Shown here: piece after piece, positions 6,746-15,518 of the stretch
How the letters are laid out: each line of letters starts with the position of its first letter
Position numbering within the stretch: the stretch's first letter is position 1
The notes under the pieces: generated by a model
The model's database searches: none
The model's input: only the letters and a program-made list of their open reading frames with translations
Told to the model about the DNA's origin: nothing
NCBI GenBank assembly: GCA_016839765.1
Contig: JAEOTP010000022.1
Location: 1 to 15,617, forward strand
DNA: 15,617 bases
Reading direction: 5' to 3'
DNA from: Promethearchaeota archaeon
GTDB lineage: Archaea > Asgardarchaeota > Lokiarchaeia > Sigyniarchaeales > SOKP01
Translations under genes and position numbers: made by a program

Positions 6746-7366
6746 TTGGTGTTTAAATTGAAAGGAACTATTGAACAAGAAAAAATAATATTTTATACTT
6801 TTAAAACGGTCATAATTGGTGCTCAGAGTGTTGGAAAGACTTGTTTATTCAATCGATTTTGTTTTAATTCTTTCAATTTCGATACATCACTCACAATTGG
6901 GATAAATTTTCACTCGATAAATTTAAAAATTAAACAACAAGACCAAATAGATATGTTGGGTGAAAACTTTATTGTTAATTCCATTTTTGATTTTGGTGGT
7001 CAAGAAAGATTTAAACCTCTACTTCCAAAATTTTTAGAAGGTGCTAATGGTGCCTTATTAGTATTTGATTTAATCAATAAAAAAACCTTTTCCCAACTAG
7101 ATTTTTGGTATAATCAGCTAATAGAACACGCTAATGGCTATTATATTCCTAAAATTTTAGTGGGTAGTAAATTCGATTTGGTAGGAAATACTCCTAAAGA
7201 AGAAAGAGTTGAAGATAAGGCAATAAATCAATTTATAGAAGAAAATAAATTAGATAGATTCTATAAAACATCAGCTTTAGAAAATTGTAATGTTGTAGAA
7301 GTATTTAAAGAATTAAGTAATTTAATGCTTAAAAAACAAAATTCTAATTTTGTTGTATTAGAATAA
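6746..7366 (+). CDS. Rab-like Ras-superfamily small GTPase
   Basis: G1 GAQSVGKT, G2 TIG, G3 DFGGQERF, G4 SKFD, G5 TSA. The TTG at 6758, 6 nt after GGTG (6748-6751), is a plausible alternative start. Confidence 0.92.
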   Translation: MVFKLKGTIEQEKIIFYTFKTVIIGAQSVGKTCLFNRFCFNSFNFDTSLTIGINFHSINLKIKQQDQIDMLGENFIVNSIFDFGGQERFKPLLPKFLEGANGALLVFDLINKKTFSQLDFWYNQLIEHANGYYIPKILVGSKFDLVGNTPKEERVEDKAINQFIEENKLDRFYKTSALENCNVVEVFKELSNLMLKKQNSNFVVLE

Positions 7367-12547: not shown

Positions 12548-13072
12548 ATGTCAAAAAAAATAGAGGCACTAAAAGAAGTTTTGAAAAAGAACCCTAGTAA
12601 TTCAAATGCTTGGATACAAATTGGATATTTGTATTTTCAAAAAGATGAATATCAAAATGCTATTAAAGCTTATAAAAAGGGCATTGAACTTAATTCAAGT
12701 GAAGCTATTAATTGGCATAACTTGGGACATATCTATTATGAAATTGAGGAATATGATGATGCTACTAAAGCATTAAAAAAAGCTTTAGAATTAAATCCTA
12801 ATCTAGCAATCACATGGTCTGAGCTTAGTTCTGTTTATATTGATATGGGGAATTTTGATAAAGCTATTATTGCTTGTAAAAATGCCTTGAAACATAACTC
12901 TAAGGATGAATCTGCTTGGACCAATCTGGGTTCAGCATATTATAATCAGAAATTATATGATAAGGCAATTGAAGCTTTAAGTAAAGCATTAGAAATTATA
13001 CCTCATTTAGAGTTTGCTCAAAAATTACTTAAGTTAGTAAAGAAAGCTAAAAATGAAGAATTAAAAAAATAA
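12548..13072 (+). CDS. Tetratricopeptide repeat protein (about 4 TPRs)
   Basis: 34-aa periodic motifs: AWIQIG..Y, NWHNLG..Y, TWSELS..Y, AWTNLG..Y, each followed by A...ALELNP-like endings. Confidence 0.93.
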   Translation: MSKKIEALKEVLKKNPSNSNAWIQIGYLYFQKDEYQNAIKAYKKGIELNSSEAINWHNLGHIYYEIEEYDDATKALKKALELNPNLAITWSELSSVYIDMGNFDKAIIACKNALKHNSKDESAWTNLGSAYYNQKLYDKAIEALSKALEIIPHLEFAQKLLKLVKKAKNEELKK

Positions 13073-13179: not shown

Positions 13180-14748
13180 ATGACGGAAGATTTTGAAAGA
13201 GATGAAAATGAAGACCCTGATGATGATAGAGAGAATATCCAAGAGGAAGAAAGAGTTAGTAAGCCAGTAGTTATTAAAGCTGAAGCTTATAAGACAATAA
13301 TCTTATATGCCAGTAGATATGCAAATCAAGCATTACCAGCTAAAGATTGGAAGGAAATCTATGGAATTTTGACGGGCTACTCAGATGAGGATTTTGTTTA
13401 CGTAGAGAACAGTTATGCTTTAACTTTTGGACATGATACGGATGTAAGTTTAGATGAGCGGCATTATGTTTTTATTGATGAGATACAACAACAATTAGAT
13501 AAAGAAGAGCAAGGTCATTTTATTGTAGGCTGGTTTCATTCTCATCCAGGATTATCTCTCTTTTTTTCTTATGTTGATTTAATAAATCAATTAGGATTTC
13601 AAGCGAAATATAGTGATGCCATTGGATTAGTATTTGATCATACGCTATTAGGAAAAAAAAAAGAAGAGAAGATTGGTGAGAACATTCTTACTAAATATGA
13701 CACAGGATTTGAAATTTATCGATTAACCGATGTAAATTTGGACCCAAATTCTCCTGAATTTGAAAATAATTATTATAAAGTAGATTATATAGTTAAAGGG
13801 TTAAATAAGTATTTCTTTGCGAATGTTTTATCAGAATTGTCTGCGTTAGTTGCTGCTGGCAAGCCCTTACAATCAGCATATAGAGAAGACTATAAACAGA
13901 GAATAGGGATTAAAGACATGCAAGATTTTGAAAATAGTAGCTCAAATTCGGATAATTATATATCTGAAATAGATTTAAAATCAGAGCCTAAGGATTTAGT
14001 TAATATTCCTATGAATGAGGATTTCTCTTTTGGATTTAGTAACCTTTTTTATGACACATCAAACCAAGAAAGTCTTTCTGAATCTACTAGTTTAAAAGAA
14101 CGAGCCGAACATTTAATATATGAGGGAAATAAGGCATTTCAGAATAAGGATACATTTACAGGAATTGAAAGATACCGTCAAGGTATCGAAAAATATAGAG
14201 AATTAGATGATATTAATCGCGTTTTTGATTTATTGAGAACTGTAGCAAAATTATGTATTTCAAATAATCATTTGGTTCTAGCAGAGGAATTTGCAGATGA
14301 GTTATTCGAGTTGTCTAAGCAAAGTGATGAATTGTTTTATTTAGGAGTAGCAAGTTATATAATTGGATATATATCTTTAAAAAAAGGAGATAAACAAGTT
14401 TTAAAGGATGCATTGAAAAAAATTGAAAACTCAGCTATATATTTTGGAAAAGTAATGGATTATGCTGGAGCTGGTATGAGTTATAATAAAATTGCTACAA
14501 TGTATCAAACAAGACTTAAAAATTATGATAGTGCATGTCTTTTTTATAAAGAAGCTATAGAAAATTATAATAAAGCTATAATTCATAGTCATCCTTTAAG
14601 AAAATCTCTCTGGAGTAAACCTGAATTACTTAGTGAAAAAATAATTGAATTAAGAGATTTAGTTGATGAGCTAATACCAAATGTTGAGAATTCTGAAATA
14701 AAAGAGAAAATAATTAACGACCTCAAATTTATAAGATACAACTATTAA
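13180..14748 (+). CDS. JAMM/MPN+ metalloisopeptidase (Rpn11/CSN5-like) fused to a C-terminal TPR/alpha-SNAP-like solenoid
   Basis: KEIYGIL (catalytic Glu, 13354) and VGWFHSHPGLSLFFSYVD (HxH-x7-S-x2-D, 13537-13578); acidic N-terminus; Ser/Asn/Asp-rich linker; helical repeats at the C-terminus. Confidence 0.88.
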   Translation: MTEDFERDENEDPDDDRENIQEEERVSKPVVIKAEAYKTIILYASRYANQALPAKDWKEIYGILTGYSDEDFVYVENSYALTFGHDTDVSLDERHYVFIDEIQQQLDKEEQGHFIVGWFHSHPGLSLFFSYVDLINQLGFQAKYSDAIGLVFDHTLLGKKKEEKIGENILTKYDTGFEIYRLTDVNLDPNSPEFENNYYKVDYIVKGLNKYFFANVLSELSALVAAGKPLQSAYREDYKQRIGIKDMQDFENSSSNSDNYISEIDLKSEPKDLVNIPMNEDFSFGFSNLFYDTSNQESLSESTSLKERAEHLIYEGNKAFQNKDTFTGIERYRQGIEKYRELDDINRVFDLLRTVAKLCISNNHLVLAEEFADELFELSKQSDELFYLGVASYIIGYISLKKGDKQVLKDALKKIENSAIYFGKVMDYAGAGMSYNKIATMYQTRLKNYDSACLFYKEAIENYNKAIIHSHPLRKSLWSKPELLSEKIIELRDLVDELIPNVENSEIKEKIINDLKFIRYNY

Positions 14749-14825
14749 ACCTCTTTTTGATATTTACACTTTTTAATAATAAAAAAAAATATATTCTAAG
14801 GTATATTATTTTAATTACTTCTTTT

Positions 14826-14830
14826 GGTGA
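14826..14830 (+). promoter_or_regulatory. GGTGA Shine-Dalgarno-like site
   Basis: Lies 7 nt before in-frame ATA-CCA-CGT-CGA-AAA. Confidence 0.5.
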
Positions 14831-14837
14831 TGTTATT

Positions 14838-15518
14838 ATACCACGTCGAAAACAGAAAATTAAATATTCTAGAAAAATCGCTTGTAAGCATCTAAAACCG
14901 TTAGGAGATATTTCTAACAGTCTGCAACCTTTATGTGTCTGTCCTTCAAGAGATTTAATACTCGGTAGGAGAGCTTACGTATGTCAGGTATGTTCAATCT
15001 ATGATCCTGCAAAATCTAATAGTAAAATCCAAGAAGTTTATGAAGAGAGTAGAAAAATTGCGGAAAAAAAGATCTTAGAGAAAAAGATTAGTTTAGAGGA
15101 TTTCGAACTTAAAGAGCTCACAGGAGATGACGAAATTGACTTAACTTTTGATGAATTTGAAGAAGAAGAGGAAGAAGAACCTTTAAAATTTGAAAAACGT
15201 AAAGTTGGAAAAGATGAAATAATCGAGGCTGAAGAATTTGGAGATTTAGAATGTCCATTTTGCGGGGAAATCTTTGAAGATTTAAGATCACATATATCAT
15301 CTTGTGAATTTGCTCCTGATGATGTTAACATAGATGATGTGCTCCCAAGTCGCAAGAAGAAGAGAAAAAAAACTACTGCACCCAGTTCTCAAGCTAAAGA
15401 AGATAAGGAAAAAGAAAAACAAGTGTGCCCTTATTGTGGTAAAGAATTTGTTAGATTAGGACGACATCTTAAGTCATGCCCTAAAAAGCCTCAAGACGCA
15501 GAAGAGGAGAATGAGTAG
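14838..15518 (+). CDS. Multi-zinc-finger protein (N-terminal Cys/His cluster, acidic tract, two C2HC fingers); proposed ATA start, 226 aa
   Basis: CKH...CVC...CQVC, then CPFC-x9-H-x3-C (15252-15305) and CPYC-x9-H-x3-C (15426-15479). The listed TTG start at 14757 runs through A/T tracts that look intergenic. Confidence 0.65.
   Translation: MPRRKQKIKYSRKIACKHLKPLGDISNSLQPLCVCPSRDLILGRRAYVCQVCSIYDPAKSNSKIQEVYEESRKIAEKKILEKKISLEDFELKELTGDDEIDLTFDEFEEEEEEEPLKFEKRKVGKDEIIEAEEFGDLECPFCGEIFEDLRSHISSCEFAPDDVNIDDVLPSRKKKRKKTTAPSSQAKEDKEKEKQVCPYCGKEFVRLGRHLKSCPKKPQDAEEENE

Follow-up and report, generated by a model that had tools for sequence, protein, structure and literature searches.

What does an archaeal protein do that carries a JAMM protease site and a helical-repeat solenoid on one chain? 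The question is raised by a gene near the end of the window (the whole stretch of 15,617 nucleotides analysed here), in which an earlier note, made from the letters alone, had recognized an intact Rpn11/CSN5-like JAMM protease, a low-complexity linker and an alpha-SNAP/TPR-like solenoid. We refer to it as JAMM-TPR, and its parts are as follows:

13180..14748, forward strand: JAMM-TPR gene, 522 aa, single copy in the genome
13180..13257, forward strand: acidic, disordered N-terminal arm, residues 1-26 (pLDDT<50; 14 D/E in 27 residues; length varies among homologues)
13258..13887, forward strand: JAMM/MPN+ domain, residues 27-236 (Pfam JAB; structure match to 6FNN)
13354..13356, forward strand: catalytic Glu59, invariant
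13423..13470, forward strand: Ins-1 segment, about residues 82-97 (alignment to CsRpn11/Rpn11 Ins-1; conservation)
13537..13578, forward strand: zinc-binding motif H120-x-H122-x7-S130-x2-D133 (sequence; invariance in homologues)
13888..14085, forward strand: flexible linker, residues 237-302 (41-174 aa among homologues)
13996..14010, forward strand: L-x-x-I-P motif in the linker, residues 273-277, conserved
14086..14745, forward strand: helical-repeat module, residues 303-522 (four long-helix TPR hairpins and a two-helix cap; LGN/Pins-like geometry)
14464..14568, forward strand: fourth repeat, residues 429-463, the alpha-SNAP-like segment of the earlier note (Pfam SNAP E=0.044, TPR_12 E=0.049)
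14590..14613, forward strand: H-P-x-R-x3-W loop before the cap helices, residues 471-478, a family signature (W in 32/33, H/P/R in 29/33 members)

The open reading frame, both folds and the linker between them are all present as the earlier note had claimed, and JAMM-TPR is a real, lineage-specific enzyme design. The JAMM/MPN+ domain consists of a first helix, the core, a short Ins-2-like loop, a fourth helix and a terminal G-K-P-x4-Y-x-E motif. An AlphaFold model of the 522-aa protein shows the MPN domain (about residues 27-226) and the helical domain separated by a disordered stretch (226-299, pLDDT<50); the two domains fold separately and are undocked, and the pTM of 0.47 fits two domains without mutual docking. 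The linker, from about residue 237 to 302, is acidic and disordered in the model. No membrane segment is present (top 19-residue hydropathy 1.15), and a promoter/terminator scan did no better than chance.

The catalytic domain bears out the complete JAMM motif that had been read from the sequence: E59, H120, H122 and S130 are invariant in 120 close homologues and D133 is kept in 119 (with a gap in one), while all five residues are retained in 19/19 representatives spread over the order. Pfam JAB matches residues 28-141 above its cut-off (E=1.3e-14). The Rpn11-like wording of the motif also held up, since the top matches among solved proteins are Caldiarchaeum Rpn11 (CsRpn11; 48 bits) and yeast Rpn11 (44 bits), followed by CSN5 (26-38), BRCC36 (22) and AMSH (18), with a haloarchaeal desampylase model reaching only E=0.03. 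The best superposition was obtained with the CsRpn11-ubiquitin complex 6FNN (Z 20.1, 1.9 A over 147 residues), Rpn11 and CSN5 structures lying within about one Z unit of it, and EMC9 aligned at Z 17.6 and 2.4 A. The first and fourth helices rank among the most conserved parts of JAMM-TPR. Ins-1, which positions the ubiquitin tail in Rpn11-type enzymes (PMC6043591), has conserved positions at G84, V89 and Y96, plus an acidic residue at 88.

How widely is this design distributed? The genome is that of an Asgard archaeon of Lokiarchaeia type. Homologues are labelled Promethearchaeota/Lokiarchaeia by their sources, and their ESM Atlas cluster has 91 members, 98% of them archaeal. By a tail-profile search the fusion occurs once per genome in 57 of the 61 genomes of its family, and in 4/14, 1/1 and 4/4 genomes of the other three families of the order; in 118 Asgard genomes outside the order the search returned eight weak, partial TPR matches and no fusion. 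For four genera of family f2, three single-contig genomes among them, the search came back without the fusion, so that it is not essential to the order; several genera that retain other long-tailed JAMMs have no counterpart of it. The 4.4-Mb genome G026, a single contig, likewise gave no match. Asgard Rpn11-like JAMMs were already known (PMC6043591), and database record P0029 names both domains automatically; we found no published description of the fusion in the literature covered, which largely leaves out subscription papers.

Candidate modifiers of two types are at hand in the same genome, along with E1s and three E2 matches. One type terminates in a single Gly and lies with E1, E2 and JAMM genes on contig C17; the other terminates in Gly-Gly with short tails and lies on contigs C33, C95 and C76; several SAMP/MoaD-like proteins are also encoded. 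E2 is present in 81/81 genomes of the order. UFM1 and UFL1 gave no Pfam match in this genome, a search that could miss divergent forms. The single-Gly modifiers belong to a ubiquitin-E1-E2-JAMM operon (L003:1946-7313, that is G000:C17:125945-131312, G000 being this genome) and have long acidic N-terminal arms; next to it are another copy and a membrane protein whose C-terminal ubiquitin-like domain is without the Gly. Proteins of about 550-590 aa with two weak E2-like matches (L170-L174; G150:C12, G138:C45) were seen in five genomes checked.

We considered whether the fusion is co-inherited with either operon modifier and rejected this, because the fusion, its site intact, is present in G150, G070 (100% complete) and G138, where neither operon modifier is detected and the only JAMMs are five long-tailed ones. 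These genomes retain one core E2 and, standing alone, an 84-aa ubiquitin that ends in Gly-Gly-Ile. Across the order 70/81 genomes have this ubiquitin, mostly at 73-100% identity, and it carries a tail of 1-2 residues after Gly-Gly in 23 of 30 copies read; at the loci read (L176:1489-1740 in G150, and 69 other genomes of the order have the gene) it stands outside E1-E2 operons. It also occurs in genera without the fusion, and was not found in the present assembly (95.9% complete) or in three close relatives. We take the stand-alone ubiquitin as the leading candidate substrate and the modifiers encoded in the clusters as alternatives to it.

On balance, and at slightly better than even confidence, we favor JAMM-TPR as a soluble Zn-dependent JAMM isopeptidase that would act on a Lokiarchaeia modifier, with the TPR module presumably choosing the target. 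CsRpn11 alone matures pro-ubiquitin and removes isopeptide-linked ubiquitin, using Ins-1 (PMC6043591, PMC5654768). By this scheme the N-terminal domain of JAMM-TPR would take up the C-terminal end of a ubiquitin-like modifier in its Ins-1 groove and, like CsRpn11, cut after the terminal glycine; this would free conjugates of the tag and might also process precursors with short pro-tails. The flexibly tethered TPR module would bind a particular substrate or complex, which would set JAMM-TPR apart in function from the others among five to seven JAMM proteins. The invariant site, the CsRpn11-like fold, the motifs common to the operon JAMM (see below), the presence of modifiers and E2s and the separately folded, undocked domains count for this reading; against it count that the fusion tracks no one modifier, that its gene does not adjoin those for ubiquitin, E1 or E2 and that no match of the tail names a partner. 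Plausibly, JAMM-TPR is a deubiquitinase-like enzyme with a built-in targeting domain, which is the part of the earlier note's interpretation that finds support.

A major question is what kind of module the tail is. Modelled alone, residues 303-522 form ten helices at pLDDT 95, and the closest structures are Pins (Z 19.8, 3.0 A over 173 residues) and LGN (Z 18.6, 2.8 A over 159 residues), LGN also filling the top four Foldseek places. Further matches are a Deinococcus protein (Z 18.2), NASP (16.7), BtubC (16.4), KLC1 (15.7) and PlcR (15.1), while EMC2 and PCI subunits are absent among the top structural matches listed. Profile comparison placed a consensus TPR (5e-7) ahead of alpha-SNAP (0.005) and Sec17 (0.87), and across the tails of 33 members the Pfam matches were Rgg_C in 26, SNAP in 22 (E<=0.01) and TPR_12 in 16. 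The tail is all helix and has no winged-helix end, and hence is not PCI-like by secondary structure. It is a generic long-helix TPR with LGN/Pins closest, and a tail of generic TPRs only, which had been named beforehand as an outcome that would speak against the reading of the earlier note, is largely what we find. A C-terminal Y-N-F, considered as a signal (for instance a proteasome-gating tail), was set aside, as it is confined to family f1 and the ends of distant members differ.

The full module is almost confined to the JAMM-TPR family in a search of 1.84 billion representatives. In protein P0156 (Logan SRR28370465), however, it follows a C39-like cysteine peptidase domain with Q/C/H/D spacing (ESM Atlas 0.94; the ten best family matches all fall in the C39 clan); a 569-aa JAMM gene follows immediately downstream, and the neighborhood is the usual one. 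It is also found on P0150, with a small Cys-rich domain, and partial copies lie behind LRR or TIR domains; the H-P-x-R-x3-W loop is present in tail copies fused to other domains too. Such company is expected of a portable binding module, and the one sample with a C39-like domain in place of the JAMM is suggestive of a peptidase swap. Elsewhere in the order, C39-like domains without this tail are frequent: these peptidases (L109-L120) make up an unannotated Lokiarchaeia family in 26/81 order genomes, with up to four copies each, one of which (L119:54-2150) is fused behind a putative thiamine-phosphate kinase-like domain.

These tail matches bear on the alternative that survives best, which we nonetheless regard as unlikely: a regulated peptidase with a non-ubiquitin substrate, in which the TPR would be a peptide or protein sensor switching the JAMM on, in the manner of RRNPP proteins or TPR-CHAT. 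Among the Pfam matches of the tail Rgg_C is the most frequent, the structure matches include PlcR, Rap and NprR, and by shape the top ESM Atlas match is TPR-CHAT; the lack of co-inheritance with modifier operons and the occurrence of the tail on a C39-like peptidase point the same way. By contrast, Ins-1 and a fold nearest to a proven ubiquitin protease argue for a ubiquitin-like substrate, RRNPP-type matches rank below LGN/Pins, and modifiers and E2s are found throughout the order.

We next turn to the kinship of the JAMM domain. This genome holds seven MPN genes, two short ones, both in ubiquitin-E1-E2 operons, and five long-tailed ones; JAB matches number 4-7 in most family f1 genomes versus 0-4 in other Asgard. 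A tree of 109 JAMM domains over 161 columns, with SH-aLRT support only and weak deep support, unites the fusion family with the remaining long-tailed paralogs of Lokiarchaeia (86) and sets the operon JAMM beside them (85); Rpn11, the one eukaryotic MPN included (CSN5, AMSH and BRCC36 were compared by score), falls with other Asgard JAMMs (91). Profile scores of the family give a clearer picture: 332 and 318 with the Lokiarchaeia paralogs, 216 with the operon JAMM, 108 with eukaryotic Rpn11 and 103 with bacterial JAMMs. By these scores the JAMM domain of JAMM-TPR is one branch of a local Lokiarchaeia expansion. It shares with the operon JAMM a motif in the first helix and the G-K-P-x4-Y-x-E motif; as the operon JAMM ends at the latter, the same motif (residues 227-236) marks the domain end in JAMM-TPR, which suggests, from sequence comparison, that JAMM-TPR is a JAMM duplicate that acquired a tail.

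Several relatives deserve mention in their own right. A tandem pair of long-tailed MPN genes (L002:8998-11880; G000:C6:94997-97879) has the look of an active/inactive pair like Rpn11-Rpn8 or BRCC36-Abraxas: the canonical JAMM motif is absent from the second gene in 17 of 30 copies read, mostly because a zinc-binding His is gone (replaced by Arg in this genome), and a few copies differ in spacing only. Such pairing has been stated as not known in archaea (PMC6043591). A 316-aa JAMM paralog (L002:6880-7827; G000:C6:92879-93826) has a Ser-to-Asp spacing one residue longer than its orthologues, and its activity is uncertain. In non-Loki Asgard classes (L049-L078), many JAMMs close with a hydrophobic helix that probably anchors them in the membrane; by profile they form the Asgard group nearest eukaryotic Rpn11.

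The linker adds a further tie to the paralogs. L-x-x-I-P occurs in 14/21 representatives against 1.5 expected from shuffles (kin that are not independent), and a paralog that has no TPR, and in which zinc ligands are often lost, carries it in 30/30 copies. Its retention there means that it is probably not a TPR-docking signal, and the idea that it docks in the TPR like the autoinhibitory motif of kinesin light chain is weakened accordingly, the two domains also being undocked in the model. Judged by its sequence distribution, the motif probably serves the MPN part or a shared partner.

Could JAMM-TPR be a subunit of a Lokiarchaeia-specific MPN complex, with the TPR as substrate receptor, BRISC-like though evolved separately? 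This we hold to be somewhat less probable again than a sensor-controlled peptidase, and it is compatible with the isopeptidase reading. In such a complex JAMM-TPR would pair with a second copy of itself or with a long-tailed paralog, the often inactive one among the candidates, the contacts being made by the first and fourth helices. These are among its most conserved parts and form the crystal dimer interface of CsRpn11, yet CsRpn11 is monomeric in solution (PMC6043591). The shared L-x-x-I-P and the clustering of the paralogs in the tree favor such a complex, whereas the gene lies far from the paralog cluster and the fusion is missing in several genera that keep other long-tailed JAMMs. The joint claim that it is the receptor in a PCI-free multi-MPN deubiquitinase complex, independently built from duplicated JAMMs and acting on the conserved stand-alone ubiquitin, with active, inactive, stalked and TPR-bearing copies held together by the conserved helices and L-x-x-I-P, is more doubtful still.

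Two further readings, the first of them that of the earlier note, fare worst. We consider it very improbable that the tail is a SNAP-type adaptor linking tag removal to membrane fusion or AAA-driven complex disassembly: Sec17 (Z 16.2, 5.8 A over 201 residues) and gamma-SNAP (Z 15.6) do align over most of the module and two-thirds of the 33 members match Pfam SNAP, but SNAP fits are loose (5.8-6.2 A, against 2.8-3.0 A for LGN/Pins at Z 18.6-19.8), the query falls below the Pfam SNAP cut-off of 25 bits (13.7 for the whole protein, 17.2 for the tail alone; one of three homologues scanned whole reaches 27.1), and the 18 SNAP matches at E<=0.01 in this genome are all in other genes. The weakly SNAP-like segment 429-463 is thus real, but SNAP identity is not specific, as TPRs, LGN/Pins, KLC, NASP and RRNPP-type domains match equally or better; the proposed link to membrane disassembly found no footing in a protein without a membrane segment and a 96%-complete genome with no SNARE over cut-off. 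Equally remote is the idea that this one chain, MPN plus helical scaffold, is a remnant or a precursor of the proteasome lid or COP9 signalosome, for which speak the Rpn11-like motif, an AU test that does not reject a clade of the fusion family with eukaryotic Rpn11 (p=0.42) and a weak PCI-like gene two genes downstream in several f1 genomes, and against which speak the confinement of the fusion to one order, the all-helix tail, the PCI-like match itself (E=0.0085, under the cut-off, and none at the loci examined outside f1) and an Rpn11 that is nearer by profile to other Asgard JAMMs (202 and 183) and to the operon JAMM (150) than to the fusion family (108). Yeast Rpn11 likewise matches the operon JAMM of this genome at 57 bits versus 44 for JAMM-TPR. 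A special closeness to lid and signalosome is not supported, the profile score with eukaryotic Rpn11 being level with that for bacterial JAMMs and far under the 216-332 seen within Lokiarchaeia.

The neighbors of the gene are metabolic, TPR and zinc-finger genes, and ubiquitin, E1 and E2 genes are not adjacent. In this assembly, where the contig breaks off within the next gene, the PCI-like neighbor was not found; PCI matches in this genome are weak (best E=1.2e-4), similar ones occurring in 12/14 control genomes. The gene directly downstream is the following:

14757..15518, forward strand: Cys-rich N-domain, acidic middle and C2HC zinc fingers (one or two); translation probably starts near 14832-14838

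It adjoins the fusion across family f1 and in part of f2, and lies elsewhere in f4. An obligate tie between the two was rejected, because the zinc-finger protein is present in 78/81 order genomes, fusion-less ones included; it is an order-wide, single-copy protein whose novel Cys-rich N-domain has five invariant Cys. The upstream TPR gene (12548-13072) was dropped as part of a module, being present at 5/15 loci only. Elsewhere in the window, a 5'-open 585-aa ORF (2-1759) resembles tandem winged-helix units and has no Pfam, PDB-sequence or UFL1 match, and a Rab/Ras-like small GTPase gene (6746-7366; Pfam Ras E=1.5e-33), convergent with a prenyltransferase-like gene, is kept in the neighborhood at most f1 loci and in f2.

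How does JAMM-TPR compare with known systems? Characterised archaeal Rpn11-type enzymes are short, broad-specificity and stand-alone. CsRpn11 of Ca. Caldiarchaeum subterraneum (PDB 6FJU, 6FJV, 6FNN; PMC6043591, PMC5654768) is a soluble archaeal enzyme that shares with JAMM-TPR the complete JAMM site, Ins-1 and a host genome with ubiquitin, E1 and E2, but is short, stand-alone and encoded beside its ubiquitin operon, whereas JAMM-TPR lies away from the operons, carries extra residues behind the first helix and continues into a long linker and the 220-aa TPR module. With eukaryotic Rpn11/PSMD14 and CSN5 it has in common the MPN+ fold (Z about 19), the motif wording and the fourth helix; it lacks matched Rpn11 C-terminal bundle helices and a PCI partner on the chain, and the fusion family is not the Asgard group nearest Rpn11, its profile likeness to Rpn11 being no better than for bacterial JAMMs of the same class. 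For the tail, the fold is like that of LGN/Pins, kinesin light chain, NASP and RRNPP-type TPRs (Z 15-20; 2.8-3.0 A for LGN/Pins), at 11-15% identity and with four repeats plus a family-specific loop and cap. Alpha-SNAP/Sec17 share local repeat wording and a helical-hairpin stack, and differ in that the tail is shorter, fits more loosely, scores below the family cut-off and has no SNARE partner found.

Two eukaryotic systems combine the same elements differently. AMSH/STAMBP has a JAMM and a helical targeting domain on one chain, an N-terminal MIT rather than a C-terminal ten-helix TPR; with the weakest JAMM likeness (18 bits), this is an analogy only. In the ER membrane complex, EMC8/9 and EMC2 bring an MPN fold to work with a TPR solenoid, as in JAMM-TPR, but they are separate chains and EMC8/9 is an inactive MPN without a catalytic site; no specific match to EMC2 was listed for the tail.

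JAMM-TPR leaves the origins of the proteasome lid and of SNAP-driven membrane fusion unexplained, and therefore carries less weight for eukaryogenesis. What the family does suggest is that one Asgard order specialized deubiquitinases through duplication and added targeting domains, parallel to what eukaryotes did with AMSH and BRCC36, and JAMM-TPR is a single soluble chain for probing substrate-targeted deubiquitination in archaea.
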